Shown here one piece after another: positions 6,011 to 64,000 of a stretch of DNA of 64,000 nucleotides. Where the stretch lies: positions 1-64,000 of IMG/VR virus record IMGVR_UViG_3300020195_000020. One strand, written 5' to 3'. Position numbers and translations under genes: made by a program. Each line of letters begins with the position of its first letter. Position 1 is the stretch's first letter. This DNA is from a virus. The notes beneath the pieces were generated by a model that did not search any database, had not been told where the DNA came from, and saw nothing but the letters and a program-made list of their open reading frames with translations.

Positions 6011-6024
6011 CCAACCGCAGCGCA

Positions 6025-37156: not shown

Positions 37157-37848
37157 CCAAACCGCTCTACCAAATCCTGGGCGCCAGCGAGACCGACGAC
37201 CCGGCGACTATCGCCGCGGCCTATCGTCGGCTCTCGAAGAGGTTCCACCCCGACAAGAATCCGGGCGACGATGCCGCGGCCGAGCACTTCAAACAAATCG
37301 CCGAGGCCTTCGAGATCTTGAACGACCCGGGGCGGCGGGCCGGGTACGACCGCACCGGTGAGATTCCCCACTCGACCGAGCAAGCCGACCGCCGCGAGGC
37401 TTTGCGGGTGCTGCAAAGCGTGATCCACCAGATCGTTGGCAAGGACCTGAAGCACGGGGTCAGAACCATCCAGCGAAAGCTGCTGGTGGACGTCGGCGAA
37501 GTGCTCGATGGCGCGATTGAACACATCGAACACGACCTGGACAAGATGCGCCGTGCCCAGACCCGGCTCGAAGAAGTCGCCGGCCGCATTTCATCACAGG
37601 ACGGCCAAGAGAATCTGCTCGCCGCTCTCACTCTGGAGCCGGTCAAGAAGATCGAGGCCGACATCGAACAGAGCCAGCGCTATCTGGCAATCCACAAGTT
37701 GGCCTGGGAGATCCTCAGGCAATTCAACTTCCGCTCGGACGCCCCGGCCGCGTCGGTCTGGGCAACTGGCAGGCAGGCGCGAGGGTTCATGCCTGACAGC
37801 GCCAACTGGCGGGAATTCGTAAGTGGCGATTTCGGTTGGGGAGATTGA
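37153..37848 (+). CDS. J-domain protein
   Basis: LYQILG...I.AAYRRL...FHPDKNPGD...F.QI.EAF.IL.D..RR..YD. Confidence 0.92.
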   Translation: MTKPLYQILGASETDDPATIAAAYRRLSKRFHPDKNPGDDAAAEHFKQIAEAFEILNDPGRRAGYDRTGEIPHSTEQADRREALRVLQSVIHQIVGKDLKHGVRTIQRKLLVDVGEVLDGAIEHIEHDLDKMRRAQTRLEEVAGRISSQDGQENLLAALTLEPVKKIEADIEQSQRYLAIHKLAWEILRQFNFRSDAPAASVWATGRQARGFMPDSANWREFVSGDFGWGD

Positions 37849-50769: not shown

Positions 50770-51369
50770 ATGACCATCAAACGAAAGTACGACATTGGCT
50801 CTGGCATCACGATCGAGGATGACGGCTATTCGCTGGTCGCGAAGTGGGAGCCCGACGACAAATCCGGCCACTCGATCGGCTGCCCGCGCCCCGTCTACAT
50901 GCCGCCCGGACAGCCCGCGGAATGGGCCGATCGGTTTCCCGATCAGCTCTCATGCCTGTTCAGTCTGGACGGTCGGCATTTCTATGTGGAGAAGTTCGGT
51001 CTTTCGGTCCGCGCGTGGCTGGGAGTTAAAGCCTATGGCTCGCGTGAAGAGCTGAACGCAGACCTAAAGCCGACGCCGTTCGGTTCGGATGGTGCAGTGT
51101 TCGTAGACGAGACCACTGGCGCGCAGCGTTTCCGCTCAGTGCTAATGTTCAGCATGTGGAAAGTGCAGCACGAGACGACGCCTCGCTCGATTGCGAGAAC
51201 AGACGAAGGCGTTGCCGACTACTTGACGCTGGCGCAGCAGTACGACAACGAACAAATGGCGCGATTCAACGAGGCCATCGCTTTCAGCGGTCGGACGTTT
51301 GCCTGGATCTTGAACAAGATCGGGAAGTGGCACCCCGTGGCGGAGCTGCCCGTGGTGAAGCTGGCATGA
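50770..51369 (+). CDS. Hypothetical protein
   Basis: AGGAG RBS. Confidence 0.6.
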   Translation: MTIKRKYDIGSGITIEDDGYSLVAKWEPDDKSGHSIGCPRPVYMPPGQPAEWADRFPDQLSCLFSLDGRHFYVEKFGLSVRAWLGVKAYGSREELNADLKPTPFGSDGAVFVDETTGAQRFRSVLMFSMWKVQHETTPRSIARTDEGVADYLTLAQQYDNEQMARFNEAIAFSGRTFAWILNKIGKWHPVAELPVVKLA

Positions 51370-51905
51370 CGCCACCCGCCAAACGTATCCTGGCACTCGA
51401 CTTGGCGCTGGAAACGGGCTGGGCACATTCGTGTGGCGAGTCGGGTATCTGGCACCTTGGCATTGGCGATAGCGAGCACGCCGGCAACCGGCTGGTGCGA
51501 CTCGAGGGCAGAATCATGGCCATGCACCTGGAATGGGGCATCGACCAGGTCGCCTTTGAAGTGGCTGCCTACGGCTCGCACCACGCCAACACCCGACAGT
51601 TTCACGACCAGGTCATGGGCGTTGTGCTGCTCTCAGCCGCCAAGATCTGTGCGCCGTGGGTCGGCTACTCGCCCACCGAGATCAAGAAGTTTTGGACCGG
51701 GCACGGCCAGGCCGACAAGGCCGCCATGATCCGGGCCTGCCAGACCTTCCTCGGCCGGACAGTGACCAACGACAACGAGGCCGACGCGCTGGCGATCCTG
51801 GAGCTGGCCAAGCACCAGGCCACCAGCAAGCTGGCGGCGGCGATCGAGAAGAAAACCAAACGACCGCGGCCGGCAAAGCAAATGAAGCTCGGGTATCAGC
51901 CGTAG
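51366..51905 (+). CDS. RuvC-like Holliday junction resolvase
   Basis: ILALDL...TGWA, VAFE, P.EIKK..TG.G.ADK..M and DNEADALAI motifs. Confidence 0.9.
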   Translation: MTPPAKRILALDLALETGWAHSCGESGIWHLGIGDSEHAGNRLVRLEGRIMAMHLEWGIDQVAFEVAAYGSHHANTRQFHDQVMGVVLLSAAKICAPWVGYSPTEIKKFWTGHGQADKAAMIRACQTFLGRTVTNDNEADALAILELAKHQATSKLAAAIEKKTKRPRPAKQMKLGYQP

Positions 51906-51982: not shown

Positions 51983-52432
51983 ATGTCAGCGATCCTCGAA
52001 ACCCTTTGCGACCACTGCCTCGCCCCGGCCGTGATCATGGTGCCGGGGCGGGCCCGCTGCCGGGCGCACGACCAGGTGGCGCCGCCACCACCGCCCGCCG
52101 AGCGAGACAGTGACCAGCGGACCTATTGGATCATCTGGGCGCGCGAAGGCGTGGTCGAAGATCTCACCGCCGTGCCGCTGCAGGACCAGCGGACCACGCT
52201 CGCCTGGCTGACCGACGACCCGCACATCGCCACGGCGCTGGTCTTCGACGACGAGACCTTCGCTCGCTGCGTGCACTTCTGGGTTTCTGTCGGCTGGTCC
52301 TCGAGCAGCGGCAATCCACACGCCACGGTCAGTGAAGAGACCGCATTGCCAGAGTACATCCGCTGGTCGCCAGAGGATGCCCGCTATTTGCGCCGCACGG
52401 TCGCCGAGGTGCTCGACCGCGCCGGCTGGTAG
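51983..52432 (+). CDS. Hypothetical protein
   Basis: CDHC...C..H N-terminus. Confidence 0.55.
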   Translation: MSAILETLCDHCLAPAVIMVPGRARCRAHDQVAPPPPPAERDSDQRTYWIIWAREGVVEDLTAVPLQDQRTTLAWLTDDPHIATALVFDDETFARCVHFWVSVGWSSSSGNPHATVSEETALPEYIRWSPEDARYLRRTVAEVLDRAGW

Positions 52433-52438
52433 CCCGCG

Positions 52439-52512
52439 CAGAAAAATACGCTCTGTCCGTTCTGTCCGACGCTCGGACAGCCTAGGCGCACTTCTGCGGC
52501 CGGGCGCACCAT
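52439..52512 (+). promoter_or_regulatory. Putative late promoter/activator site, copy 2
   Basis: Same 30-mer as 6025-6054, same N5-CGGACAG-NN-TAGGCG, then 18 bp and CACCAT. Confidence 0.75.
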
Positions 52513-52556
52513 ACCCTCAAGACACCGATCGAGTCCTCGCAGGAGGTGCGGACCCG

Positions 52557-52754
52557 ATGAGTGGCCGCAGGAATTCGTATTTCAACCTGGGCTGGCTCGC
52601 GGGAAAAGCCGACTGGCCCAAGCCACCGTCACCGCTGGCTCACTACCGAAGTTCGCCCCCCGACGAATGCACGCCGGCGCAACTCAGGTGGTGGCAAGAA
52701 GGTTACCGAGCATGGCTTTCCGGCCGGACCGACGACCAGCAACACCGCCGCTAG
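52557..52754 (+). CDS. Small Rmf-like protein (tentative)
   Basis: AGGAGGT RBS. F..GW.AG...P...W..GY spacing resembles ribosome modulation factor. Confidence 0.5.
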   Translation: MSGRRNSYFNLGWLAGKADWPKPPSPLAHYRSSPPDECTPAQLRWWQEGYRAWLSGRTDDQQHRR

Positions 52755-52759
52755 ACGAA

Positions 52760-52996
52760 ATGGCGCGCCGGCAAACCGTCTGGTTCTGGCTGGCCCTGAT
52801 CGCCCTGGCCGCCGTCGCCGGCTGGGCGAGCAACCGACCCGAGCGGCCCACGCTCTGGACCTGGTCGACCCCGGTGCACGTCCGCGAGTTGCACGGCGCC
52901 CTGCTGGAATCCGAGCCCAAGGTGACCAATGCGATCGCCAGGCTCGGCGCCGACCACCGCTACGAGCTGGAACTGAGCCTGCGGAGAACCCGGTAA
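52760..52996 (+). CDS. Small membrane/secreted protein
   Basis: N-terminal hydrophobic segment. Confidence 0.55.
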   Translation: MARRQTVWFWLALIALAAVAGWASNRPERPTLWTWSTPVHVRELHGALLESEPKVTNAIARLGADHRYELELSLRRTR

Positions 52997-53119
52997 ATGT
53001 TCACCTTCACGAATTTGATGTTTTACACCGCGGGAGTGGCCTCGGGCATCGGCCTGTCGGTTGGCGTCTGGAAATTGATCGACTCCATCCTCAACAACTG
53101 GCAGGGCCCCGGCTCATGA
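52997..53119 (+). CDS. 40-aa single-TM peptide
   Basis: Own translation MFTFTNLMFYTAGVASGIGLSVGVWKLIDSIL... Abuts or overlaps both neighbours. Confidence 0.55.
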   Translation: MFTFTNLMFYTAGVASGIGLSVGVWKLIDSILNNWQGPGS

Positions 53120-53490
53120 CGCGCACACGAACCTACCGCTGGCTGGCCATGGCGCTGGCACTGACCGCCGGCTACCTGGTGGCGCTGGCACTACCGGAGC
53201 CCGTGCAAGCCGAGCCGGTCGTGATCGAGTTCTCGGCCCCCTGGTGCGAATTCTGCCAGGCCGCCAAGAAAGACGTGGCGGGGCTCCAGAAAGAGGGTTT
53301 CGACATCCGCATCGTCAACGTCGACGACGAGCCCAAGCGGGTGGACGAGTACCGCATCAAGACCATTCCCGCGTTTGTGGTGGTCGAGACCACAACCGCT
53401 AAGGAGCTCGAGCGACGCGTCGGGAAGACCGACGGCGCGCAATTGCGGGCCCTGATGACCAAGCACGCCATGAAACCGAAGGCCAAATGA
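53116..53490 (+). CDS. Exported thioredoxin-family protein
   Basis: Signal/TM segment, then F.APWCEFC, VNVD and cis-Pro motif I.TIPAF. Confidence 0.9.
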   Translation: MTRTRTYRWLAMALALTAGYLVALALPEPVQAEPVVIEFSAPWCEFCQAAKKDVAGLQKEGFDIRIVNVDDEPKRVDEYRIKTIPAFVVVETTTAKELERRVGKTDGAQLRALMTKHAMKPKAK

Positions 53491-53699
53491 TGTTCATCAT
53501 CCTGGATGAAGAGACCCAGTTGCCGATCACGCACCGCGAATTCGATTGCAGCAACCCGCGATCGATCGCGATGTTCGCCAACGAAGATCTGGCCGAGGGG
53601 GCGCTCCGCGAGACGATCAACCGCCATAGCCGCCAGCTCAAGGTCATGAGCTGGATCGACTGGATGGAAAAAGCCGGGCACGCCAAATCGCAAGCATGA
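53487..53699 (+). CDS. Hypothetical protein
   Basis: Coupled small ORF. Confidence 0.55.
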   Translation: MMFIILDEETQLPITHREFDCSNPRSIAMFANEDLAEGALRETINRHSRQLKVMSWIDWMEKAGHAKSQA

Positions 53700-54106
53700 A
53701 CCAATCGACCGACACCCGCCGTGGTTTCCTGGGTCGCACGCTCGCAGCGGCCGCGGCAGTGGTCTGCGCCCCGCTGGTGCGGTTTGCCCCGGCGGCTTCG
53801 AAGCCATGGAGCGCTGCGGCGGTCGATCACGCCGCCGCTTTGGCCGATTCTCCTCATTGCCGCATTGTGGTTCGGACGTTCCAGGGCAGGGTCAAAAGCA
53901 TCGCCGGCGAGCGGGCGCAATTGGTGGCCGAGGATCCGATCACCGGCGAGGTCACAGAGATCGACGCATTGCTCTGGATGGCCCTGGTGCCAAGCGTGGG
54001 CGATGGGGCCATCGCCATCTGGGATCCCACTGTCTCGGACTGGTTTGTGGTCTTGCAAATCTGGACCAAACCGCCCGTCGCCTACCTCGACCCGGTCAAA
54101 TCATGA
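53696..54106 (+). CDS. Tat-signal protein with a small beta-barrel domain
   Basis: TRRGFLG followed by a hydrophobic stretch. Confidence 0.7.
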   Translation: MNQSTDTRRGFLGRTLAAAAAVVCAPLVRFAPAASKPWSAAAVDHAAALADSPHCRIVVRTFQGRVKSIAGERAQLVAEDPITGEVTEIDALLWMALVPSVGDGAIAIWDPTVSDWFVVLQIWTKPPVAYLDPVKS

Positions 54107-55155
54107 CTCTCTTCCAACTGCCGCCGTACCACATGAAGGTCGTGATGAGCGCCGCCCAGGTTGGGCAGGCGATCGACTGGGGCATCACGTATTTGAAGGC
54201 CCTCGAGATTCACAAGACGACCAAGGGCGCCGGCATCAACGTGGCCGTGCTCGACACCGGCATCGACATGAGCCACCCCGATTTTCAGGGGGCGATCGTC
54301 GCGGCGCAGGACTTCACCGGCAGCGTGCACGGCGTGATGGACGCGAACGGTCACGGCACGCACACCGCCGGCACGATCGGGGCCCGCGACAACGGCGTCG
54401 GCAGCGTCGGCATGGCGCCCGAGTGTGGCCTGATCATCTGCAAAGTGCTGGGGGACGATGGCGCTGGCGACGACGAAATGATCGCCGCCGGCATCCGCTG
54501 GGCGGTGACCATGGGCGCCCAGATTCTGAGTATGTCGTTTGAGTCGCCCAGCCCCTCGCCCGTGATCCGCGCGGCGATCGACGACGCGGTGCAAAAAGGC
54601 CGGTTGGTGGTCTGCGCGGCAGGCAACCGCGGCATCGCCGGCAACGGTTATCCGGCCGCCTGGGATGACGTCTGCCAGAGTATCGCGGCCAACGATCAGA
54701 AGGGGCGGATCGCCGACTTCTCGGGCGTGGGCCCGCAGGTCGACGTCTGCGCGCCGGGCGTGCACATCCTGAGTTGCTGGCCTGGCGGCAGCTACGCCTA
54801 TCTCGACGGCACCAGCATGGCCTGCCCGCACGTGTCGGGCGGTCTGGCTCTGGTGGCCGCCTATCGCCGCGCGAAGGCCCTGCCGCAGATCGCCAGCCAG
54901 GCCGAGCTGAACAATGCCCTGCATGCGACGGCCATCGCGCTGGAGCCGACGCCGCCGCCAAATCAGCGGTGGGGCTATGGCGTGTTCAATCCCACCGCCC
55001 TGCTGGACTACGCCACGGCGCCGCCCAATGCTCCGCCCGCCGCCGCGCCGCGCAAGGCCCGCCGCTGGGCGATTCCTTTCCTGTATGGCTACCAGGACTG
55101 TGAATGGGCGATCACCGCCAACCCGATCGTCAAACCCGCGGCCCCGGCCGCTTGA
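54103..55155 (+). CDS. S8 subtilisin-like serine protease without a signal peptide
   Basis: VAVLDTG, HGTHTAG, AAGN and GTSMACPHVSG motifs. N-terminal LPPY. Confidence 0.96.
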   Translation: MTLFQLPPYHMKVVMSAAQVGQAIDWGITYLKALEIHKTTKGAGINVAVLDTGIDMSHPDFQGAIVAAQDFTGSVHGVMDANGHGTHTAGTIGARDNGVGSVGMAPECGLIICKVLGDDGAGDDEMIAAGIRWAVTMGAQILSMSFESPSPSPVIRAAIDDAVQKGRLVVCAAGNRGIAGNGYPAAWDDVCQSIAANDQKGRIADFSGVGPQVDVCAPGVHILSCWPGGSYAYLDGTSMACPHVSGGLALVAAYRRAKALPQIASQAELNNALHATAIALEPTPPPNQRWGYGVFNPTALLDYATAPPNAPPAAAPRKARRWAIPFLYGYQDCEWAITANPIVKPAAPAA

Positions 55156-55191
55156 TTCGTTGTTTCGTTATCCCGTAACTGGAGAACCGTT

Positions 55192-55647
55192 ATGAAGTTT
55201 GCTCAAGCGTCCGCGAAAGCGGCCCTGTTCGACCGCTGGAAGAATCGTCCGCTGCCCGACCCGAATCGCCCGCGCCCCGTGCTCGATGCGATCAAAGGCG
55301 CGTTGACCGAGCTGGTCAAGAATGGCGCCTCGACCATGATGCCGATGCTGCTGCAGCTCGCCCAGAAATACCTGAGCGGTCTGAGCACGCCCTCGAGCGC
55401 CGAGGCCTCGCTGCATGCGGACACGCTGGAAATGCTCGGCGAAGAGATCGCCAAGCACGGCAGCAGCGCCGCGAGCACCAGCGCGGATTGGGTTTGGCTC
55501 GGTCCCTGGCTGGAAGCTGGACTCAAGCAAGCCGGTCCGGTCGTGATTATGGACCTGCTCATGCTCTTGAATCTGACCGGTGCGCCGACCACGGCCGCCG
55601 AAGCTGGCGCGGACCCCGCGGCCGAAGCCAGCAGCGCGGCCGACTAG
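55192..55647 (+). CDS. Amphipathic helical hypothetical protein
   Basis: GGAG RBS, hydrophobic helices. Confidence 0.6.
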   Translation: MKFAQASAKAALFDRWKNRPLPDPNRPRPVLDAIKGALTELVKNGASTMMPMLLQLAQKYLSGLSTPSSAEASLHADTLEMLGEEIAKHGSSAASTSADWVWLGPWLEAGLKQAGPVVIMDLLMLLNLTGAPTTAAEAGADPAAEASSAAD

Positions 55648-55710
55648 TCGGCCAGCAACAACAACGCTAACGCTTCGACTTCGCAGGGACGCATGGCGGA
55701 GGCGTGACGG

Positions 55711-55944
55711 ATGGACAGATACACGGTGCAGGCGGCGCTCGAGGAAGCAACTGACGCCCAAGGGGTGTCCGAGGACATACGACAGTTCACGGACCAGGCC
55801 CTGTTGGGCGAAATGCTTCGCCGGCGCCGCCTGCATCTGGCGGGGCGAACCAGCAAAGTCAACGAGCAACAGCTCTTAGACCACTGGCGAGACCTGCTGG
55901 AGGGAGTAACCGAACCGTCCAGTCTGCAAGGAACCGTACCATGA
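55711..55944 (+). CDS. Hypothetical protein
   Basis: GGAGG RBS, overlaps the next start. Confidence 0.55.
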   Translation: MDRYTVQAALEEATDAQGVSEDIRQFTDQALLGEMLRRRRLHLAGRTSKVNEQQLLDHWRDLLEGVTEPSSLQGTVP

Positions 55945-57113
55945 AAACATTCTCGAAAACTCTGCTCGTCGCGCTGTGCCTTTGCACCTATTTGATTTCG
56001 GGGAGCGCCGGCGCCGACGAGCGAGTATTGCTCGCCCAGAAAAACGACGAGCAAGTTTCTCAGCCGCAGCCCAAGATCTCGCCGCAGCAGCGGGCACTGG
56101 TGACCTTGGGCGAAGCGCTCTACTTCGACACCCGAGTGTCGAGCGACAACACCACGAGCTGCAGCAGTTGCCATAGCCCTGAGCACGGGTTTGGCGATGG
56201 CCGCGACCTGGCCGTCGGTCGCATTGGCAGCCCCGAGAGCAACGGCCGCCGAGGTTTCGTCGGCACCCGCCGGACGCAACCGAACCTGAACACAATGCTG
56301 CGCGAGTACCTGAAAGACGAGCGAATGTTTTGGGACCTGCGCGCGGCTAACTCCGTTGCCCAAGCCACGATGCCGATCGAGAACCCGATCGAAATGGGGA
56401 ACCAGACTGTCGGCCAGGTCGCCGCCCGCCTGAACCAACTGCAGGGCTACCGGGATATGACCCGGGCAGCCTTCGGCGCCGACGAGCTCACGCCGCGGCG
56501 GATGGCCGAGGCTCTGGTGGCCTACCAGCGGACCGAGATTGTGGCAGTCGACACGCCGCTCAACCGCTATTACCAGGGCAAGGAAGATGCCGTCAGCGAG
56601 CAGGGCAAGCGGGGCGCGGCGCTGTTCAAGACCCACTGCATTTCTTGCCACTCGCCGCCGCTGTTCACCACGGGCGAGGCCTTCAACACCGGGATGGAGG
56701 ATCGCTTTAGCCGGCAACTCACCGCCGAAGCGGCCGCGCGCGGGGAGATTCGCCGCGAAGATCTTGGCCTGGAGCGGACGACCAAGAACCCCAACGACCG
56801 CCGCAAGTTCAAGACGCCCGGCATCATCGGACTGACTGCTCGCCGGCCGCCGTTGAACCTCAACCATCACGGCCAGATTCACTCAGTGCGCGACCAGATT
56901 GTGCACTATGCCGCCGCGGGCAACTATCGCCTGGGCGGCAACACTCAGACCTACCGCGACCCGTCGATCGACCCGCGGGTCGCCAAGATCAAGCTCGCTG
57001 ACAACCCTGCCGCGCTGGAACAGGCCATCTTGGACCTGGAGCACACCGTGCTCGTGGACCTGATGCCTGACGATTATCCAACTGGCGTTCGACGCCCGGA
57101 GCGGCTCCCCTGA
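55941..57113 (+). CDS. Di-haem cytochrome c peroxidase (bCcP/MauG superfamily)
   Basis: Signal peptide, LG.ALYFD.R.S, CSSCH, FWD.RA, Q...PI.NP.EM, CISCH and FKTP motifs. Confidence 0.93.
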   Translation: MKTFSKTLLVALCLCTYLISGSAGADERVLLAQKNDEQVSQPQPKISPQQRALVTLGEALYFDTRVSSDNTTSCSSCHSPEHGFGDGRDLAVGRIGSPESNGRRGFVGTRRTQPNLNTMLREYLKDERMFWDLRAANSVAQATMPIENPIEMGNQTVGQVAARLNQLQGYRDMTRAAFGADELTPRRMAEALVAYQRTEIVAVDTPLNRYYQGKEDAVSEQGKRGAALFKTHCISCHSPPLFTTGEAFNTGMEDRFSRQLTAEAAARGEIRREDLGLERTTKNPNDRRKFKTPGIIGLTARRPPLNLNHHGQIHSVRDQIVHYAAAGNYRLGGNTQTYRDPSIDPRVAKIKLADNPAALEQAILDLEHTVLVDLMPDDYPTGVRRPERLP

Positions 57114-58249
57114 TGTTTCGCTCACTGTTTGCCACGCTGATACTCGCGGCCCTGCTGGTGCCAGGCGAGCCCCTGCCGCATATCGCGGCCGATTCTGTCA
57201 AACCAGCTTTACAAAACCGCCCGGAGCCTGCGCAGTTTGCGTTACAGGACCAGGATGACCTGGCCGCCGACATCGCCCAACGCCTTACCGAGAAGTTCTC
57301 GACTGCGTGGGACCTGGCTGGCTGGGAAGTTGCGGCGATTGACGTGCCGCCAGAGGCCACCGGCGCCACGCCGCAAGCCAGGAAACTGTTCGCCAAAATG
57401 CGAGCCGCGGTGGCCGCCGACGGTCCGCCGACCGCACCGGTAGACGATGACCTGCCCCCGGCACCGCCGCCGCCGGCCCCGCCTCCACCAGCCGACGCGG
57501 CGCCGAAGTCCGAGCCCGCGAAACCGGACCCGCCGAAGCCTGAGACTCCCAAGCCGGAGCCAGAGCCCAAGAAGCCCGAGACCAAGAAGCCGGCCGACCC
57601 GCCGGTAGTTCGCATCCGGATCAACGGCGAAGACGCCCGCGACAACACGGCCACGGTCGACCTGGGAAAGCTGGTCGAGATTGAATTCTCAGAGTCTGGC
57701 GGCCCGGTGCGCGAACGGTCGATCACGATCGGCCCCAAACTCGACACTACGCACATGCGCAAGCTCGATACGACGCACGTCATTCTGGCGGCGCCGCCGG
57801 GCATTTACGACGTGCGCGTGATCGCGATCGGCACCGAGCGGGGCTTCTCAGAGCACCGGATCAAGCTGGTCATTCGCGACCCGCGTGCTGCCGAAATGGC
57901 AGAGCAAGCTAAGGCCCAGGCTGCCGCGGCCAGCCAACCCAAGACGCCGTCCGACCCGTTTGCCGAACTGCGCAAGCTGGCCGCCGGCATCGAGTCGCCC
58001 AACCGCTCGATCGAGGCCGCCGAGGTGGCCAAGGCCTTTGCCAGCCGCACCTCACTGGCCGACTCGATTGGTGCCGCGCGACTCGCCCTGATTGGAATCG
58101 GCGCGAACGCAACCAACTGGCAACCGTTCTTTGCGGGTGCCGAGCGAATCTTCGGCGACGTCCGCACGGAGCTGCGGACCGCTGGCAAGACTGTTGACGA
58201 GGGCAGGTTTCTCAAGGAGCTGGCCAAGATGCTGGGCGAAACGCCCTGA
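57113..58249 (+). CDS. Secreted Pro-rich multidomain protein
   Basis: Signal peptide, PKPE linker, Ig-like APPG.Y.V.V segment, helical C-terminus. Confidence 0.75.
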   Translation: MFRSLFATLILAALLVPGEPLPHIAADSVKPALQNRPEPAQFALQDQDDLAADIAQRLTEKFSTAWDLAGWEVAAIDVPPEATGATPQARKLFAKMRAAVAADGPPTAPVDDDLPPAPPPPAPPPPADAAPKSEPAKPDPPKPETPKPEPEPKKPETKKPADPPVVRIRINGEDARDNTATVDLGKLVEIEFSESGGPVRERSITIGPKLDTTHMRKLDTTHVILAAPPGIYDVRVIAIGTERGFSEHRIKLVIRDPRAAEMAEQAKAQAAAASQPKTPSDPFAELRKLAAGIESPNRSIEAAEVAKAFASRTSLADSIGAARLALIGIGANATNWQPFFAGAERIFGDVRTELRTAGKTVDEGRFLKELAKMLGETP

Positions 58250-58310
58250 CAGTAAGCGTATTCACGGGGCAGAAGAATGCCCCTTTCCCTGTTCGCAAAG
58301 GAGGACTGCT

Positions 58311-58688
58311 ATGTTCCGAATTCTGAGCGTTGCGTGCGTCGCGTTGGCCCTGATGCTGATGGCCAACACGGCCGAAGCCGGTCGGCGCGGCGGTGGCGGT
58401 TGCTCGAGTGGCGGGTGCAGCACGGGCGGCGGCGGTTGCAATGTCGGTGGCAGCAGTGGCTGCAATATCGGCCAGAGCAACACGTCGGCCTCGCAGCGTG
58501 ATCTGCAGCAGTCGCCGGCGCTGTCGATTCCCGCTCCGGCCGTGACGGCCAAGAAGCGTGCCGACGCCGCGATCGCCCAGGCGAAGCGGACCCCCAAGTA
58601 CGACCTGGCCAAGTGCGAGAAGCTGGCCGGCGCTGTCGACGCGGTCGAGCCGACTGGTAGTCGTCTCGAGATGCTGGCCCAGCGGTAA
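58311..58688 (+). CDS. Secreted Gly/Cys-rich protein
   Basis: AAGGAGG RBS, signal ending AEA, then GGGGCSSGGCSTGGGGCNVGGSSGC. Confidence 0.75.
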   Translation: MFRILSVACVALALMLMANTAEAGRRGGGGCSSGGCSTGGGGCNVGGSSGCNIGQSNTSASQRDLQQSPALSIPAPAVTAKKRADAAIAQAKRTPKYDLAKCEKLAGAVDAVEPTGSRLEMLAQR

Positions 58689-58791
58689 GCGTGCTTTCCG
58701 GCGCGGGTTACCGCGTCTCTGAATCAACCCGAGCGGCTGACGGCCGCAGTGGAGCTTGCTTTTTTCAACCGCTTTTTGAGGAGGTGCTTTG

Positions 58792-59448
58792 ATGCGTTCG
58801 AACCGATTCTTTCCGATGATCCTGGCCGCTGCGGTGGCCATCGCCATGGTGGGAACTGCCGTTGCCCAGACCGCCAGCGCGACCGCCGGCAACGGCTTTG
58901 CGGCTTCGCAGGCGGGCCCGGCAACGCCGGCCCCGAGTGACGCGGCCAACCAGTTCGCGGCCCCCGCGGCCACGAGCTCTGCCACCACCACGACGGCCGT
59001 CGCTCCGGCGGCGACCACCACGATCGCCGTGGTCCCGGGGGTTGTTGCCAGCAATGGCTCCAGCCGATCGCGATCGCGGACCAAGACCACGACGACGACC
59101 TCGGTCCAGCCCAATGTGAGCACGGGCACGGTCGTAACTTCTCAGGCTACGGCGCTGGTGCCGCAGACTGTATTGGTGCCTCAGACTGTGATGGTGCCGG
59201 TGCAAACCGCCACGATCGCGGCCAACACCGTCGCGGCCAACACGGGTAGTAGTACCGTGACGAGCACCACAACGACCCGCACGAATAGCCGCGTGAGCCT
59301 GGCGGATCGCCTGGCGGCTATGAAGGCGAGTCGCGCGGCGTCGCGAAGTTCTACCGTTTCGAGCTCGACGTGCAGTACCAACTGCAACACGGGCGGGGCC
59401 CGCACTCGGAGCCGGTCGTCCAGCCGGTCGACGAGCCGCAGCTATTAG
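58792..59448 (+). CDS. Secreted Ala/Thr/Ser-rich low-complexity protein
   Basis: GAGGAGGT RBS, signal ending AVA-Q, RS-rich tail with CSTNC. Confidence 0.75.
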   Translation: MRSNRFFPMILAAAVAIAMVGTAVAQTASATAGNGFAASQAGPATPAPSDAANQFAAPAATSSATTTTAVAPAATTTIAVVPGVVASNGSSRSRSRTKTTTTTSVQPNVSTGTVVTSQATALVPQTVLVPQTVMVPVQTATIAANTVAANTGSSTVTSTTTTRTNSRVSLADRLAAMKASRAASRSSTVSSSTCSTNCNTGGARTRSRSSSRSTSRSY

Positions 59449-59546
59449 TCCGGCTCGATAGCCCTTCGCGCCCGGATCTGTCTACGGCCACGGCGACAGT
59501 CCGGTGCGCGAAGGTTCTTTTCTCTCCTTCATCCCGAGGCACCACC

Positions 59547-60293
59547 ATGTGGCGCATCCTGGTCCAAAAGCTGCGACGTCGGAAGAAGCGGCCAGTCGTG
59601 GAAGTGCTGGGGATGGAGAACGTCGTCGGCGGCCTGGTCCTGATTCAGGCGGAGCTGCGGATGATGCGTCAACTACTCCGCTTGATCGACAAGAACCTCT
59701 CACGTTTGGTGGCGCCGCCGCCCGTGCGATGGTTGAGCTATATCCAATACGATGAAAGGTTTGCCATGGGAAAGCATTGGCTGATTTACCGCGTCAACTG
59801 GGACCCTGTGCCGGCCACGCAGAAAGACGTCGTCAAGCGGGTACTCAAGATCACATCCGACGGCGTGAGCCAGCTCAAGGAGTATCCGCCCGAAACGACT
59901 TTCGTCGACGGCATCGAGCTGCTCAAAGACTCGACCTGCCAACTCTCGATCACGCAGGTCGACGGCGACGGCAACGCGTCGGAGCCGGTCGCGTCGCCGA
60001 TCTTTGTCGTGCATGACAAGGTGGCGCCGCCGAGCGTGACCGGGTTCGGCTTGAATCAGTATTCCGAGCGGTTCGAGGAAGACCCCGCGCCCGAGGAGCC
60101 CGCTCCGGAAGAGCCCGCTCCGGAAGAGCCGGCCCCCGAGAACCCGGCGCCCGAGAATCCGGCGCCGGAAGAGCCCGCGCAGCCCGCGCCCGAGAACCCG
60201 GCGCCAGAAGAGCCGGCGCCCGAGCAGCCGCCGAGTGGCGACGGGCAGCCGCCCGTGCAATCCACCACGCCGCCTGACGAGCTGGTGGACTGA
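59547..60293 (+). CDS. Fn3/Ig-like protein with acidic EEPAP repeats
   Basis: V.WDPV...VD.DGN.SEP pattern. Possible internal start at 59766. Confidence 0.7.
   Translation: MWRILVQKLRRRKKRPVVEVLGMENVVGGLVLIQAELRMMRQLLRLIDKNLSRLVAPPPVRWLSYIQYDERFAMGKHWLIYRVNWDPVPATQKDVVKRVLKITSDGVSQLKEYPPETTFVDGIELLKDSTCQLSITQVDGDGNASEPVASPIFVVHDKVAPPSVTGFGLNQYSERFEEDPAPEEPAPEEPAPEEPAPENPAPENPAPEEPAQPAPENPAPEEPAPEQPPSGDGQPPVQSTTPPDELVD
60076..60225 (+). repeat. 15-bp coding tandem repeats (E[E/N]PAP)
   Basis: GAAGAGCCCGCTCCG-like units in tandem. Confidence 0.9.
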
Positions 60294-60327
60294 CCCGACC
60301 TTCCCGGTCTGACGGTTCCGGGAAACC

Positions 60328-60373
60328 GCGGCTGGCGCCCGAAGGACTGGGAGCCACGCCAGCCGCATTTTTT
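60328..60373 (+). terminator. Putative intrinsic terminator
   Basis: GCGGCTGGCG...CGCCAGCCGC followed by ATTTTTT. Confidence 0.5.
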
Positions 60374-60395
60374 ATCCCCCTGACAGAGAACGACC

Positions 60396-60707
60396 ATGCC
60401 AGACAATCGAGAGCGCCGCCTCAAGATCTACACCATGTCACGCCACGTCTTGCTGGCCGTGCTCAATGGACTGCCCAACGACGTGCATTGCCTGCCCATC
60501 CACGGTGAGATTCCGGAGGGGGCGGAAGTCATTGACGTGCGCGACGACTGGTCGCGGCAGTGCCTAACCCTGATCGTCTTTCACGAGAGTTTCCCGATCG
60601 TGCCCGACGGCAACGAACTGGAGATCGTAATGGACCTTGGCCGCCACCTGGTCAAGCGACCGGTCGAAGCGACACACGAGCTCGTCGAGCAAGCGGCCCT
60701 GTTGTAA
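60396..60707 (+). CDS. Hypothetical protein
   Basis: IP.GA.V..V......HESF..VP.G motif. Confidence 0.6.
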   Translation: MPDNRERRLKIYTMSRHVLLAVLNGLPNDVHCLPIHGEIPEGAEVIDVRDDWSRQCLTLIVFHESFPIVPDGNELEIVMDLGRHLVKRPVEATHELVEQAALL

Positions 60708-60741
60708 GGAAGCGACACCATCCAATCAGGAGCCCCGAACC

Positions 60742-61089
60742 ATGATGGTCCGAGAGCCCCAAGGCGACCGCGTACGACTCACCATCCCAACGCAGCTCGC
60801 AATTGTAGGCCTGGCGCTGGCGATCATCGTTCCACTGGGCGGCGCTATGGCAACGGCTTGGAGCTGGACTTCGAACGTCGACGTCCGCTTTACGAAGCTG
60901 GAGATGACCGCGACGCAGGCCTCTGAGAACACCAAAAACACCAACGAAACCGTGAACAAGTCGATCCAGAAACTCGAGACCAGCGGCGAAAAAACCCACG
61001 AGCTATCCGAGAAAATCCAGCACGACCTGACCGATCTGAGCAAGCGCCTCCGCCGCATTGAAAAAGCGGCCGGCACTGCGCAGCCATAG
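60742..61089 (+). CDS. Single-TM coiled-coil protein (holin/XhlA-like architecture)
   Basis: AGGAG RBS, TM segment then heptads ending RLRRIE. Confidence 0.6.
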   Translation: MMVREPQGDRVRLTIPTQLAIVGLALAIIVPLGGAMATAWSWTSNVDVRFTKLEMTATQASENTKNTNETVNKSIQKLETSGEKTHELSEKIQHDLTDLSKRLRRIEKAAGTAQP

Positions 61090-61101
61090 GAGCAAATTGC
61101 C

Positions 61102-61293
61102 ATGCGAATCAATGCCAACGACTTGAGCCCCCGCGAGTGCATTCCCGCGGCCACCGATCTGCCCATCAACGTGGCCGAGCTCGGCGGCCCGGGCGACCTG
61201 GTGGCCGGCGACGTCGCCCGCCTCTCGGCGAGCTGCGAACCCAACCGCGACGTTGCCGACCTGCCGCCCGGCACGAAGACGGTCCGGTCCTAA
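61102..61293 (+). CDS. Small hypothetical protein
   Basis: AGGAG RBS. Confidence 0.5.
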   Translation: MRINANDLSPRECIPAATDLPINVAELGGPGDLVAGDVARLSASCEPNRDVADLPPGTKTVRS

Positions 61294-61335: not shown

Positions 61336-64000
61336 ATGACCATTCGCAATCGCAGCCGCATGCGAGTCCGCCGCCCGGCCCGGGACTTTAACAATCGCCG
61401 GCCGGCGGACCGGTCGCGGCTCTACACGGGCCAAGGCGCCTATGGCAGCGTCCAACCGTTCGGCGACATCTCGACCCGCAAGTTCACGGTGGGCGGCACG
61501 GCTAGCTCGAACCTCGGCGTCCTCTGCTCGGTCGAGCGATGCCCAATGGTCATCAAGCTCGGCGGCAAGAACCTACTGGAGATCACCCAGGTCTCGCAGG
61601 ACAACGCCTTCGACTACAGCTTCTCGGCCATCATCGCGCGCAACTCCACGGACGGCGGCGTGACCTGGGGCGTGGCCAGGGAAATCTTCCGCCTCTCCGC
61701 GTATCAGGAAGGCGTCGAGTGGCTTAACGGGTTCATGGCCAGCGAGGAGCTGGACAACGCAGGCCAGATTCACATCCTGTTCTGCATCTTCACGGGCACG
61801 GGGGGCGTGATCGAGCGACCCTATGCGATGAAGCTCACCAGCACGGACCTGGGGGTGACCTGGAACTCGCCGGCACGATGCACATACTCGGCGGGCTACG
61901 TCAATGGCGTGGGTGAGATCAGTCAGCAGGTCATCAAGGTCAGCAACGCGGTCCCGGCCGGGATGCCGACCTGCTACACCACGGGCGACCTGAGCCTCGA
62001 CGCGCCGTGGGTTCACTACGCCTTCGGCCCTGGCAAGATCGTCAAGAAGGCGGACGGCACGCTCGTCGCCTTCGCCAATCACCGCTACTCGACGACCGGA
62101 ACCGCGACCCAGAAGCAGTCGTGGACCCACTGCATCTATTCGACCGACAACGGTGCGACGTGGGCGCTCGGCGGTGGCTACATCGAGCAGAATAGCACCA
62201 CGCAGTCGAACACGAATGAAGTGACGGCGTGCATCATCGACTCTTCCGACTCGATCCTGATCTCGTCACGCTGCACGAGTGGCTCGGGCCAGGTATGGCG
62301 GGCGATCACGACGATCACCAGCCACACGGCGAACTGGAGTTCCCCCACGTTCACGACCGACATGGGTGGCGCTGATTGCTGCGGCTCCATGTGCTGCCCG
62401 ACCAAGGGCGGGCCGATCTATCACTCGCTGGTCAGCAACGTCAACTCCAACAACACGTCCCAGCGAAATCACTTGGGGCTCTGGAAGTCCACGGACGCCG
62501 GCGCTACGTGGTCGCTGATCCAGACAATCAACCACGAGACGAGCGCCTACTCGGACCTCATCTACATCCCGGCCAGTCGCAGTTTCCATTGCACATTCGA
62601 GCGCTGCCGAGACGTATCGACGTTCCAGGCTTTTGCGGGCGAGATCAGCCGCAAGCTGTTTACGAAGAAGTGGGCCGACCTGCCGCAGGTTCGCATGGCC
62701 AGCTTCCCATTCAACGAGGATTCGTCTGGGGCGATCCCAACTACTGGACGACCGTTGATCTGCCACGGAAACATCGACGGCGGGGGCTGGGGCGGTGCTG
62801 GTGCGTCCTATAGCGCGACTGGCGCCGTGACCAACGGCACTAGTAACGGCATCTTCCTCCAGCTCGTCCAGACAGGAGCCAATGCCGGAGGCGGATACGC
62901 CAATCAGCGTGGCGGGCCGTGGGACTGGCCAGCCGGCGAAGCGATCACCTTGCAACTGATCGGCATCAAGACCGTCAGCGGCAGCAACCCCGCCCTCGGC
63001 AAAACCATCATTGGTAACCGTGATTCCGGTAACGGCACTGGCTGGCAGATCAATTCCGCTGGCAGCGGCTCGTTGACCGCCACGGCGTTCGATGGCCGCG
63101 GTACAGACGCCAGTGGGAGTTCGGGAACTGGCTCGACGGTAAAGGCTAGTGGCACCGCCGCGCTGAATGGTACGCGGCGAACGATGGCCCTCACTATCAG
63201 CGCTGACCGCACCCGCGTGCGCTGGTGGAAGGAAGCGGCAGACGGGACATTCTCGGCCGGCACAGCCGCTGACTGGAGCCTGCTGACCAAGGGGATCACC
63301 GGGTCGGTGTCAACGCTCATCGGCAATCAGCTCTCGTCGCCGAGTGATACCTTTGTCGCGTCCACTGGCGAGGCGGTGGACATCTACGAGGTGCGGATTG
63401 AACATGGCATCGAGCGCGACTCCGGGTTCACCGCATTCGCGTCGCTGGTCAAGGAGTCGCCGGCAGCGTTCATCAACGCGCCCACCGCACCGAGCATCCC
63501 AGCCAACGACCCGACGCTGATCGGCTCTGGGCTCCAGTCGTGGCTGCTCGCCACCCGCGACAACGGCTACAACGCCAAGGTCGATCCCTACGGCCGACTG
63601 CCAGCGTACATGCCGCGACAAAAGGGCTCTGGTGTCCTGAGCTACGCGGACATGATCGCCTCGTCGCGCGTGTTCACGGTGTCCAGCACCTCGCGCGGCC
63701 TGCACTACGACACTGACTCGATGGTCGGGCCGTGCTACCGCATGCAGTATTCGTCTGGCGCACACGCCTCGGGATACATGATCGCACCTGCGATCGGAAT
63801 CGCCGACTGGCAGTTAACGATGGCCTTTAGCTTCGCCGGCATCTTCTGGTTCAACAGCGAGACCGGATCGAGCCAGGTCATACTTGACTCCTGCCTCGGC
63901 GGCAATCTCCATGCCGGTGTTTGGCTCGCTCGGGTCAACAGTACCGGCAAGATTCAGCTCATCATCTCCAAGGACGGAACCAACACGTCGGCTTACGCAT
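61336..64000 (+). CDS. Sialidase (GH33-like beta-propeller) with LamG/ConA-like domains, truncated by the window end
   Basis: Not in the ORF track because it has no stop in the window. Own translation shows four Asp-boxes (STDGGVTW, STDLGVTW, STDNGATW, STDAGATW), ERCP, GPG, TNE, QR..L and SAYSDL. Confidence 0.85.
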   Translation, partial: MTIRNRSRMRVRRPARDFNNRRPADRSRLYTGQGAYGSVQPFGDISTRKFTVGGTASSNLGVLCSVERCPMVIKLGGKNLLEITQVSQDNAFDYSFSAIIARNSTDGGVTWGVAREIFRLSAYQEGVEWLNGFMASEELDNAGQIHILFCIFTGTGGVIERPYAMKLTSTDLGVTWNSPARCTYSAGYVNGVGEISQQVIKVSNAVPAGMPTCYTTGDLSLDAPWVHYAFGPGKIVKKADGTLVAFANHRYSTTGTATQKQSWTHCIYSTDNGATWALGGGYIEQNSTTQSNTNEVTACIIDSSDSILISSRCTSGSGQVWRAITTITSHTANWSSPTFTTDMGGADCCGSMCCPTKGGPIYHSLVSNVNSNNTSQRNHLGLWKSTDAGATWSLIQTINHETSAYSDLIYIPASRSFHCTFERCRDVSTFQAFAGEISRKLFTKKWADLPQVRMASFPFNEDSSGAIPTTGRPLICHGNIDGGGWGGAGASYSATGAVTNGTSNGIFLQLVQTGANAGGGYANQRGGPWDWPAGEAITLQLIGIKTVSGSNPALGKTIIGNRDSGNGTGWQINSAGSGSLTATAFDGRGTDASGSSGTGSTVKASGTAALNGTRRTMALTISADRTRVRWWKEAADGTFSAGTAADWSLLTKGITGSVSTLIGNQLSSPSDTFVASTGEAVDIYEVRIEHGIERDSGFTAFASLVKESPAAFINAPTAPSIPANDPTLIGSGLQSWLLATRDNGYNAKVDPYGRLPAYMPRQKGSGVLSYADMIASSRVFTVSSTSRGLHYDTDSMVGPCYRMQYSSGAHASGYMIAPAIGIADWQLTMAFSFAGIFWFNSETGSSQVILDSCLGGNLHAGVWLARVNSTGKIQLIISKDGTNTSAYA

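Follow-up and report, generated by a model that had tools for sequence, protein, structure and literature searches.

A subtilisin and a MauG-like di-haem enzyme in a candidate envelope-directed module of a phage genome without a recognisable endolysin

How might a phage leave its host when its complete genome appears to hold no recognisable cell-wall-degrading enzyme, and could a block of genes for small membrane proteins, a thioredoxin, a subtilisin and a di-haem enzyme take that part? The question is raised by a single contig of 74,145 bp, of which bases 1–64,000 are the window analysed here (64,000 nt). The last 113 bases of the contig are a copy of its first 113 bases, and the phage record is classed in IMG/VR as carrying direct terminal repeats and rated 100% complete by CheckV; the source genome is that of a temperate, lambda-like phage, complete and circular, and carries marker genes of Planctomycetes. 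Genes were annotated from our own ORF calls (n = 100) with Pfam and PHROGs, and transmembrane (TM) segments and signals were assigned by hydropathy scan and sequence motifs; the labels "exported" and "Tat substrate" are based on motifs and hydropathy rather than on a dedicated predictor. Many ORFs lacked any match, including g73, g76, g84–g86 and the large tail proteins. The features from g65 to g83 described below lie on the + strand.

The first-pass annotation had recognised no endolysin in the 64 kb, and this absence extends to the complete genome. Pfam searches of all 100 called ORFs (E ≤ 1e-3) found no lysin, nor did a six-frame genome search at E ≤ 1 with PF00959, PF01510, PF01464, PF01183, PF13539, PF01520, PF00877, and PF01551. 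In PHROG searches of the block and of 52 endolysin-sized ORFs elsewhere, no lysin was among the matches listed (25/30 families). The absence of known lysin families is compatible with a muralytic enzyme of unrecognisable sequence.

It is by its position that the block suggests a lysis slot. It comes right after a RuvC-like Holliday-junction resolvase gene, g65 (51,366..51,905; PF02075, E 3.2e-6; phrog_159, E 2.1e-18), and g66 (51,983..52,432), which encodes a 149-aa protein with an N-terminal, Zn-ribbon-like C-x2-C-x14-C-x2-H motif and had no match in Pfam and PHROG searches, and it stands behind a repeated element common to the head operon. As g66 lies directly upstream of this element, it is possibly a late regulator. 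The element is a 55-nt block with two direct and one inverted CTGTCCG, present in only two copies in the 74 kb (6021–6075 and 52,435..52,489), which match exactly over 30 nt (at 6025 and 52,439) and at 87% across the 55 nt. The first copy lies 3' of TerS, TerL, and g7 and 5' of the gpW-like and portal genes; thus, the earlier claim that the block starts at an element preceding the head genes stands for the copy at 52,439 and for the head genes, but not for the terminase. A sigma-70 consensus and an intrinsic terminator were looked for around the element and neither was found, and its motif occurs on no other IMG/VR contig. The first ORF behind it (65 aa, 52,557..52,754) came from a start-codon scan, has GGAGG 8 nt upstream, no Pfam match, and was skipped by the gene caller, making it an uncertain gene. 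Separately, the early/replication region ends at g65. Our leading reading, a tentative one, is that the block would be expressed late as an envelope-directed module in the lysis slot, most likely providing or sharing the exit function.

The block opens with small membrane peptides. g67 (52,760..52,996) encodes a single-pass peptide of 78 aa (TM residues 6–24 by hydropathy scan) that is holin-like in size and unmatched in Pfam and PHROGs, and the abutting g68 (52,997..53,119) encodes a hydrophobic peptide of 40 aa, unmatched in PHROG. Such peptides had been described as holin-like, but none of them matched a holin family. The next gene, g69 (53,116..53,490), overlaps g68 by 4 nt and encodes a thioredoxin-fold protein with a WCEFC motif and an N-terminal signal or anchor (PF00085, E 1.9e-10; phrog_22, E 3e-7); a hydrophobic segment spans residues 9–27, and residues 29–118 align with PDB thioredoxins, including the CxxC and the cis-Pro (in "TIPAF"). 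It is followed by g70 (53,487..53,699; 70 aa, signal-less), translationally coupled at both ends and left without a functional assignment after Pfam and PHROG searches, and by g71 (53,696..54,106; 136 aa), which carries the twin-arginine motif TRRGFLG and whose stop overlaps the start of the S8 gene (ATGA). The g71 protein is an ORFan among 1.84 billion representatives, and its Atlas model shows at most a weak similarity to small beta-barrels. From g67 to the S8 gene, six genes in a row each abut or overlap the next, and in many block genes the stop codon overlaps the next start codon (4-nt overlaps at 53,116, 53,487, 53,696, 54,103, and 55,941; a 1-nt overlap at 57,113), which bears out the tight coupling first described.

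This coupling, which ties the thioredoxin to the membrane peptides and, via g70 and g71, to the subtilisin, supports the stricter scheme of the first-pass annotation, in which holin-like peptides free the cytoplasmic subtilisin and the exported thioredoxin reduces disulfide cross-links in a cystine- and proline-rich protein wall, reduction and proteolysis together replacing an endolysin; position and the lack of a lysin favour it as they favour our leading reading. A periplasmic thioredoxin would, however, have to draw its electrons from a partner (for example DsbD or CcdA), and no such source is encoded; moreover, the direction of the redox reaction is not readable from the CxxC dipeptide. 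Planctomycetes also possess peptidoglycan, which must still be breached.

The protease itself, g72 (54,103..55,155; PF00082 (Peptidase_S8), E 7.2e-47; phrog_3677, E 2.6e-69), is an S8A subtilisin without signal peptide or I9 prodomain. Its S8A domain shares ~40% identity with the intracellular subtilisins (ISPs) of Bacillus and Planococcus (PDB 2X8J, 2WV7, 6F9M, 7Y6M), which likewise have a C-terminal extension, in g72 a Pro/Ala linker with a short conserved C-tail. All 43 relatives share D51, H84, N175, and S238, and judged from these features g72 is of the ISP type with complete catalytic residues. Its 21-residue N-extension precedes residue 22, where alignments with mature subtilisins begin, whereas those with ISP structures begin at residues 3–6 and align the Pro-Tyr motif of the extension with the ISP pro-peptide; this motif is LPPY (RLPP[YF] in the clade) and not the [LVI]-[IFLV]-P-[YFH] of ISPs. 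By definition, subtilisins of the ISP type are housekeeping enzymes of the cytoplasm, a point against an exit function; unlike them, g72 is phage-encoded beside exported proteins and belongs to a clade whose members are restricted to Planctomycetes and the PVC group and show links with haem-c proteins and with phage packaging genes. In ISPs, the pro-peptide inhibits and calcium activates the enzyme (PMC6220982). In our leading reading, the subtilisin would build up inactive in the cytoplasm, probably kept latent by the LPPY extension as in Bacillus ISPs, and would reach the periplasm through lesions made by the small membrane peptides as possible holins, or alternatively be carried there by g71, the Tat-signal protein whose gene overlaps its own; once activated there, it would attack envelope proteins.

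Downstream of the protease gene lie g73 (55,192..55,647; 151 aa, helical, low-complexity) and g74 (55,711..55,944; 77 aa, signal-less), which runs into the start of g75 (55,941..57,113), the gene for the haem enzyme. The latter encodes a predicted secreted protein of the di-haem CCP/MauG family (PF03150 (CCP_MauG), E 2.1e-38) with two CxxCH motifs. Its PDB matches include bCCPs (E 1e-23) and MauG (E 3e-17), the best sequence matches being bCCPs (profile E 2e-55). The protein shares with bCCPs (e.g. PDB 3O5C, 1IQC, 2C1U) the two CxxCH motifs as well as the Trp of FWD(G/L)RA and the Glu of NP-x-EM. In contrast to bCCPs, g75 lacks the distal His loop ligand, this position being Arg or Ile in profile alignments, and a Tyr ("EHY") aligns with the bCCP Met ligand (..NTM, ..KIM), a feature of the g75 group and one shared, together with the di-haem CCP_MauG fold, with MauG. 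With the distal His ligand missing and Tyr in place of the Met ligand, simple peroxide scavenging is doubtful. In our leading reading, the enzyme would oxidise a protein substrate instead of just removing peroxide, and would act from the periplasm on the envelope that the protease attacks. We know of no role for a di-haem oxidase in lysis.

The MauG-like ligand features also support a serious rival, which we nevertheless hold to be rather unlikely: a MauG/Qhp-like maturation module, in which the di-haem enzyme would oxidatively modify or cross-link an exported protein (candidates g71, g76, and g77), the anchored thioredoxin would handle substrate or haem-attachment cysteines in the manner of MauD or CcmG, and the cytoplasmic subtilisin would, like QhpE, clip off a leader peptide ahead of export. 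Instead of lysis, the product would act in envelope remodelling or superinfection exclusion, or have a role in the virion or in interaction with the host. In quinohemoprotein amine dehydrogenase biogenesis, the leader peptidase QhpE, subtilisin-like and cytoplasmic, shares its operon with the genes for a di-haem subunit and a small Cys-rich subunit (PMC7876137). In the block, too, a signal-less subtilisin-like protease, compared with QhpE at the level of the S8 fold, is encoded beside a di-haem protein and a small exported protein rich in Cys. The mau cluster (MauG, thioredoxin-like MauD, membrane protein MauE, and the Cys-rich, Tat-exported MauA) has parallels in the anchored thioredoxin, the small membrane proteins, the Tat-signal protein, and the Cys-rich secreted protein encoded together here, but the haem enzyme is the sole homologue and its partners share no sequence similarity. 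MauE was searched for and is absent, as are methylamine dehydrogenase or other amine-dehydrogenase-like subunits, and the block lacks the radical-SAM QhpD, the flavoprotein QhpG, and the ABC exporter QhpF. Such a module would also leave the missing endolysin unexplained.

Coupled to g75 is g76 (57,113..58,249; 378 aa), a predicted secreted, Pro-rich protein with a TonB-like (K/E)P-rich spacer, unmatched in Pfam and PHROG and returning only itself from a search of 5.8 billion proteins. It is followed by the predicted secreted proteins g77 (58,311..58,688; 125 aa, Gly/Cys-rich, 6 Cys, no credible Pfam or PHROGs family) and g78 (58,792..59,448; 218 aa, Ser/Thr/Ala-rich), both with signal-like N-termini, and by g79 (59,547..60,293; 248 aa), which has (P-A-P-E-E/N) repeats, 15-nt tandem repeats at 60,074–60,248, no clear signal, and no match in Pfam or PHROGs. 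All components listed by the first-pass annotation, from the small TM proteins to the secreted Pro-, Cys-, and Ser-rich proteins, were thus recovered by Pfam, PHROGs, motifs, or hydropathy scan. Further downstream, g81 (60,742..61,089; 115 aa, TM residues 19–37 by hydropathy scan) encodes an N-anchored, i-spanin-like coiled-coil protein that weakly matches Rz-like spanin families (phrog_739, E 2.4e-3; phrog_89, E 2.8e-3), and no lipobox ORF that could be its o-spanin partner occurs within 52–66 kb. The end originally placed at 61,293 is arbitrary: same-strand genes run on to 65,707 via g83 (61,336..64,000, ending at 64,329, past the window), a BNR/sialidase-like protein of 997 aa (PF13088 BNR_2, E 2.9e-12) that, on the block's gene string, is probably a receptor-binding or depolymerase protein.

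This continuation into a receptor-binding-like protein, the predominance of ORFans and lineage-specific genes in the block, and the many unannotated ORFs of the genome favour another alternative, namely functionally unrelated accessory genes (for a periplasmic oxidative-stress peroxidase, a thioredoxin, a protease, and surface proteins, plus a receptor-binding module out of its usual place), with lysis left to an endolysin and a holin that are encoded elsewhere and not recognised as such. S8 homologues also occur outside phages, including a close one in a non-phage chromosomal setting of a Methylacidiphilales MAG. We consider this mixture unlikely: the stop/start overlaps across six genes favour co-function, the element common to the head operon speaks against lysogeny-type moron expression, and the base composition is not atypical. 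Furthermore, the order S8, small membrane proteins, di-haem enzyme is kept in three elements at 29–54% identity.

Besides the phage itself, one of these is a second prophage (G023:C14), in which RuvC (homologous to g65) is followed by a 113-aa gene, S8, a gene for a papain-fold peptidase of 148 aa, genes for two TM proteins (73 and 48 aa), and CCP; its 67 ORFs match 21 Pfam families, none of them lytic. The other, a metagenome fragment (L144), encodes S8 (54%), directly followed by a g73-like gene (52% identity over 122 aa), two small TM ORFs, and then CCP; g73 is absent from 401 Pirellulales genomes searched. In Pirellulales islands, S8 and, after it, two genes for secreted haem-c proteins stand directly 5' of TerS-like and lambda-family portal genes at 12–14 of 20 loci, an arrangement found in at least 12 genomes. 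Haem-c motifs are unusually common among Planctomycete secreted proteins. Across the order, S8 is found in 41/301 genomes vs. 6/301 for Phage_lysozyme. Cultured phages with S8 genes are mostly large Bacillus phages, and in them these genes lie apart from the lysis genes. The recurrence represents about two independent lineages only, and points to a conserved core of signal-less subtilisin, small membrane proteins, and MauG-like di-haem enzyme.

The pairing of S8 with the di-haem enzyme is in line with protein maturation, but g71, g76, g77, and the thioredoxin are missing in the relatives that retain it; g78 and g79 do not recur either. The thioredoxin is also absent from the Pirellulales islands. 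Of the thioredoxin, protease and TM-peptide cluster whose recurrence in endolysin-less phages had been proposed as a test, S8 and TM proteins do recur (in G023:C14), the thioredoxin does not. Reductive opening of the wall is weakened because the thioredoxin does not recur and the haem enzyme, the protease's conserved partner, is unaccounted for; we regard that scheme as distinctly improbable. In our leading reading, the anchored thioredoxin would more likely be a CcmG/ResA/MauD-like helper of the co-encoded haem-c and Cys-rich exported proteins than a host-wall reductant, and the Pro-, Cys-, and Ser-rich proteins would be lineage-specific accessories.

Compared with the lambdoid holin–endolysin–spanin cassette, the block shares the slot after the resolvase/late-regulator region, the location upstream of packaging genes in related islands, the opening with small membrane peptides, a signal-less enzyme, and an anchored coiled-coil protein downstream. 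It differs in that its enzyme is a subtilisin, with no known muralytic family, holin family match, or lipoprotein o-spanin, and in its conserved di-haem oxidase, to which nothing in known lysis cassettes corresponds. The original lysis/envelope interpretation thus loses the support expected from thioredoxin, holin, and o-spanin, but retains that of the slot, the lysin absence, and the recurring core, and the block remains a credible, if unproven, candidate exit system of an unusual kind.

The 74,145-bp phage genome is a single contig in which 113 bases at the start recur at the end, so the assembly is circular; IMG/VR classes the record as a virus with direct terminal repeats, and CheckV estimates its completeness at 100%. 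Our own codon-bias gene calling yielded 100 ORFs (g-numbers below). The lambda-type packaging and head module comprises a TerS-like protein, a gpA-type TerL (3377-5362), a lambda-family portal, an S49 protease, and a major head protein. Tail genes extend to about 26.6 kb and are followed by an integrase region, and a long early/replication region encodes CsrA, DnaJ, GNAT, and DUF5131 proteins, C5 and Dam methylases, and a prepilin-like DUF1559 protein, from a family that has expanded greatly in Planctomycetes. A TerL search of IMG/VR found no relative. The nearest protein relatives of the phage are found in Pirellulales MAGs, and the planctomycete host proposed in the first-pass annotation is therefore reasonable. 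At the start of the genome, an exact 52-nt direct repeat (28-79 and 1182-1233) lies on both sides of a DUF932 gene on the minus strand (140-1144), which itself contains a 75% copy of the repeat (640-667).

The same annotation had described a tightly coupled gene block, starting at a copy of the element that precedes the head genes, as a candidate lysis or envelope system. The element copy at the start, the gene content, and the coupling were all confirmed. Only two copies of the 55-nt element exist in the 74 kb (6021-6075 and 52435-52489), identical over 30 nt and 87% identical over 55 nt. Each has the heptamer CTGTCCG in two direct and one inverted orientation, and the loop between the heptamers varies between the copies. 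Copy 1 follows the TerS and TerL genes and g7 and lies immediately ahead of the gpW-like and portal genes. Neither copy has a sigma-70 consensus or an intrinsic terminator, and a motif search detected the element in no other IMG/VR contig; a function as promoter or activator site is plausible. Directly upstream of copy 2, and preceded by a RuvC-like resolvase gene (51366-51905), g66 (51983-52432) encodes a 149-aa protein with an N-terminal C-x2-C-x14-C-x2-H motif, which could, by position only, be a late activator of the Ogr/Q type.

Downstream of the element, a possible ORF of 65 aa, preceded by a strong Shine-Dalgarno site, is followed by g67 (78 aa, one TM segment and a charged tail), g68 (40 aa, hydrophobic), the thioredoxin gene g69, g70 (70 aa), g71 (136 aa), and the S8 peptidase gene g72. 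Two genes, g73 and g74, separate g72 from the CCP_MauG gene g75, whose product carries a signal peptide. Next come three genes for secreted proteins, g76 (with a TonB-like (K/E)P spacer), g77 (rich in Gly and Cys), and g78 (rich in Ser and Thr), then g79 (PAPEE repeats) and the anchored coiled-coil gene g81, flanked by g80 and g82. Neighbouring genes from g67 to g72 either abut or share 4 nt, and so do the pairs g74/g75 and g75/g76. The block does not end at 61293, as had been proposed, since the same-strand string runs on to 65707 with a gene for a 997-aa BNR/sialidase-like protein and three further genes. The BNR/sialidase-like gene (61336 to 64329 of the genome) encodes a Gly-rich stretch and a C-terminal part that is probably lectin-like. 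It belongs to this string, remote from the main tail operon, and probably represents a receptor-binding or depolymerase gene that has been displaced.

The claim that no lysin is recognisable in the first 64 kb was borne out and can be extended to the whole genome, as a search of the remaining sequence with endolysin HMMs also detected none. Lytic Pfam families had no match in any called ORF of the genome at E ≤ 1e-3. A six-frame genome search at E ≤ 1 detected no Phage_lysozyme, Amidase_2, SLT, GH25, Peptidase_M15_4, Amidase_3, NlpC/P60, or M23 domain, with control genomes giving matches in the same search. PHROGs profiles identified neither an endolysin nor a holin in the block, and for the 52 endolysin-sized ORFs outside it neither was among the best 25 of the 30 families matched. 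Thus, in contrast to a holin-endolysin-spanin cassette, no muralytic enzyme (glycosidase, amidase, or endopeptidase) was recognised in this phage. This result refers to known families and is not proof of absence, because many ORFs are unannotated, and the genome may still encode an unrecognised lysin. The products of g67 and g68 are holin-like by size and position only and matched no family. The g81 product weakly matches two Rz-like spanin families (E 2.4e-3 and 2.8e-3), the only lysis-flavoured signal in the genome, and no lipobox ORF that could encode an o-spanin was found in the 52-66 kb region. Planctomycetes have thin peptidoglycan and an enlarged periplasm, and the older literature describes a protein-rich wall. 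In the literature searched, no paper dealt with the lysis genes of planctomycete phages, and non-lytic release has been claimed for a different planctomycete phage of 21.9 kb (PMC10945688).

The protease encoded by g72 is a complete S8A subtilisin, with the Asp-His-Ser triad and the oxyanion Asn in subtilisin order (D51 in DTG, H84 in HGTH, N175, and S238 in GTSMA), all invariant among 43 aligned relatives. It matches the full PF00082 profile (E 7.2e-47) and is about 45% identical to subtilisin BPN'. Like ISPs, it has a short N-terminal extension and no signal peptide, I9 prodomain, or hydrophobic N-terminal segment. Alignments with mature subtilisins begin at residue 22 of g72, and those with the ISP structures 2X8J, 2WV7, 6F9M, and 7Y6M at residues 3-6, taking in the extension. 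This extension reads Q-L-P-P-Y (clade consensus RLPP[YF]) and is close but not identical to the ISP motif [LVI]-[IFLV]-P-[YFH], as its second position is Pro instead of [IFLV]. In ISPs, this LIPY/F pro-peptide motif inhibits the active site until calcium-dependent processing (PMC6220982). The ISP-like alignment start and the LPPY extension thus suggest that g72 encodes an ISP-type cytoplasmic protease that is probably latent.

Proteins of the g72 clade (4,439 matches) are mostly from Planctomycetes. In a sample of 301 genomes of the order to which the Rhodopirellula MAG belongs, 41 encode homologues, some in 3-4 copies, and only six encode a Phage_lysozyme. Among cultured phages, an S8 homologue is present in only 66 of 50,697 records, mostly of large Bacillus phages; the Tsamsa copy is surrounded by early or metabolic genes. 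The closest relatives (P0002-P0011) share 50-57% identity with the phage protein, and some are located on contigs of about 72 kb. Searches of genome and metagenome contigs with S8 yielded, among the matches listed, generic subtilisin motifs, and only one metagenome fragment (L144) was useful. IMG/VR contigs with S8 genes at 24-42% identity have no other block gene in common, and their sole shared neighbour is a DnaJ-domain gene beside S8 on jumbo-phage contigs. This gene, which resembles the phage's own DnaJ gene g39 (37153-37848), is found about 0.8 kb downstream of S8 in the AT-rich large-phage contigs L002, L004 (both IMG/VR jumbo-phage contigs), L148, L150, L153, L154, L178, and L200.

The exported haem protein encoded by g75 has the two haem-c motifs of the CCP_MauG family (CSSCH and CISCH; PF03150, E 2.1e-38) and matches both bCCPs and MauG in the PDB (profile E 2e-55). 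Its C-terminal 121 residues alone had no PDB match. It retains the Trp of FWDxRA and the Glu of NPxEM. Unlike canonical bCCPs, which have a His/Met electron-transfer haem and a distal His loop, it has a Tyr ("EHY") aligned with the Met ligand (..NTM in 3O5C, ..KIM in 2C1U), as do the homologues at L135 and L011, and at the distal-His "GH" loop position g75 and its relatives carry Arg or Ile, both by alignment only. MauG-type enzymes, whose substrates for oxidation are proteins, characteristically have Tyr as a ligand and a peroxidatic haem that is five-coordinate. On these alignments with bCCPs, we infer that g75 may be MauG-like.

These enzymes could also form a MauG/Qhp-like maturation module, the main rival to an exit function, in which the cytoplasmic subtilisin would trim a leader and the thioredoxin would serve exported Cys/haem proteins. 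QhpE, a cytoplasmic subtilisin that trims a leader peptide, provides a precedent (PMC7876137), and g76, translationally coupled downstream of g75, is in the position of a candidate substrate. Yet g76 is an ORFan and absent in relatives, the putative substrates in general are not conserved, and no MauE was found, making this explanation rather doubtful.

The thioredoxin assignment of g69 is supported by its WCEFC and TIPAF motifs, which align with the WCGxC and IPT (cis-Pro loop) of thioredoxins, and by PF00085 (E 1.9e-10); an N-terminal hydrophobic segment is also present. The g71 protein contains T-R-R-G-F-L-G followed by an Ala-rich hydrophobic segment, which as a motif reading fits the Tat motif S/T-R-R-x-F-L-K. 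It is an ORFan among 1.84 billion representatives, and its Atlas model has only weak likeness to a small beta-barrel. Small twin-arginine-like proteins (TRRQAL.. and HRRFCLQAL..) also adjoin signal-less S8 genes at two other Pirellulales loci (L133:10632-10898 and L136:8788-9003), echoing the g71-S8 pair. For g73, no match was found in 401 Pirellulales genomes, and the Atlas search was uninformative. None of g71, g73, and g76 looks like a lysin, though any of them may still be one.

Part of the block recurs in other genomes. A prophage in a Pirellula MAG (contig G023:C14, about 94-145.7 kb) has CsrA (77%), RuvC, S8, CCP (33%), a DUF4942-type methylase gene, and an integrase in common with the phage; its morphogenesis module is a different one. 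In this prophage, RuvC is followed in turn by a 113-aa gene, S8, a 148-aa gene, TM proteins of 73 and 48 aa, and CCP. Among its 67 ORFs of at least 60 aa, 21 Pfam families were matched, none of them lytic. The 2.35-kb groundwater contig L144 encodes, in order, S8 (54%), a g73 homologue (52%), two small TM ORFs, and CCP (29%).

In addition, 12-14 of the 20 Pirellulales chromosomal S8 loci (L124-L143) have the gene in a syntenic island of about 10 kb (e.g. L127:1336-11212). The island starts with a TM protein, a helical protein (about 135 aa), the ISP-like S8, and a secreted protein (about 455 aa) whose SCxRCH haem-c motif is near-invariant. It continues with a second secreted protein, which has a cytochrome-c domain (about 180 aa in all), small proteins that are secreted or anchored, a ParB-like protein, and ATPase+GNAT, and ends with a TerS-like protein, a 541-aa protein, and a lambda-family portal (E 2e-21), after which it stops. 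Housekeeping genes flank the island, which looks like a domesticated phage remnant or GTA-like unit. The 541-aa protein was considered as a TerL, which was not confirmed. With this order, S8 and the exported haem-c proteins occupy exactly the place of S-R-Rz in lambda, shortly ahead of the packaging genes. A quick tree without assessed support groups the phage S8 and its nearest metagenomic relatives in a clade with a long branch that falls within the island S8s.

The thioredoxin, g71, g76, and g77-g79 do not recur in relatives, and g73 does so only in L144. Of the suggested thioredoxin, protease, and TM-peptide cluster, the S8 and TM proteins thus recur, together with CCP, but the thioredoxin does not. 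The conserved unit is not thioredoxin plus protease. It consists of an ISP-type subtilisin, small membrane proteins, and a MauG-like or haem-c exported protein, and its conservation makes it probably functional. A strict reduce-and-proteolyse system, in which the thioredoxin would open disulfide cross-links for the protease, fits the content of this block but not that of its relatives and is distinctly improbable.

The 148-aa protein after the prophage S8 (L135:10571-11014, corresponding to G023:C14:102070-102516) belongs to an unannotated phage family of about 145 aa and at least 100 clusters, with invariant GDCWRCC, HHAVV, and YDPHPS motifs (alignment A10). Folding of the single sequence gave a pLDDT of 41, and the AF2 model built with 45 homologues has a pLDDT of 94. 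The fifty best structural matches of this model are all papain-like peptidases; among them are staphopain (Z 8.6), C39 domains (Z 8.0-8.3), and PeiR, a pseudomurein endoisopeptidase of prophage origin (Z 8.5). This predicted papain-fold protein could be the lysin of the G023 prophage. The family is absent from our phage, and its members in nine IMG/VR contigs have small early-type genes as neighbours and not S8, CCP, or membrane proteins. The protein is therefore no proof of a lysis cassette, and it does not explain this phage either. That the block is unrelated cargo and lysis depends on a hidden endolysin is compatible with the many unannotated ORFs, and we consider it unlikely.

Taken together, the position of the block, the element common to the head operon, the translational coupling, and the lack of known lysins in two complete elements lead us to favour, tentatively and with somewhat less than even confidence, a role in phage exit. 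The subtilisin would be made latent in the cytoplasm, be freed through lesions in the membrane or exported along with the overlapping Tat protein g71, and become activated outside the cytoplasm. Against this role, ISPs are cytoplasmic enzymes, an S8 homologue lies in a non-phage context, and no holin or spanin family was convincingly matched; we also know of no part played by a haem oxidase in lysis. A further-reaching proposal is that tailed planctomycete phages of this group exit without a muralytic endolysin, the latent subtilisin, released or co-exported late, dismantling the protein-rich envelope together with a MauG-like di-haem protein oxidase. The subtilisin, membrane peptides, and haem enzyme would then be a new kind of lysis cassette, also surviving in domesticated form beside terminase and portal genes in many Pirellulales; this appears improbable.

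S8 proteases, thioredoxins, and CCP/MauG proteins are ordinary families. As far as we could find, neither the S8-haem linkage in the lysis slot of endolysin-less planctomycete phages nor the Pirellulales island of S8, haem-c, and packaging genes has been described, the latter hinting at a domesticated phage remnant. With a common module of protease, membrane peptides, and haem enzyme in the lysis slot of a complete temperate phage and a second prophage that both lack recognisable lysin families, there is a concrete and testable lysis candidate. Should the module prove to lyse cells, it would be the first known case of a bacterial tailed phage that exits by means of a protease and an oxidase, and it would supply enzymes that act on planctomycete envelopes. 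If it is not lytic, the conserved pairing of an ISP-type subtilisin with a MauG-like or haem-c protein would still point to an undescribed protein-maturation pathway.
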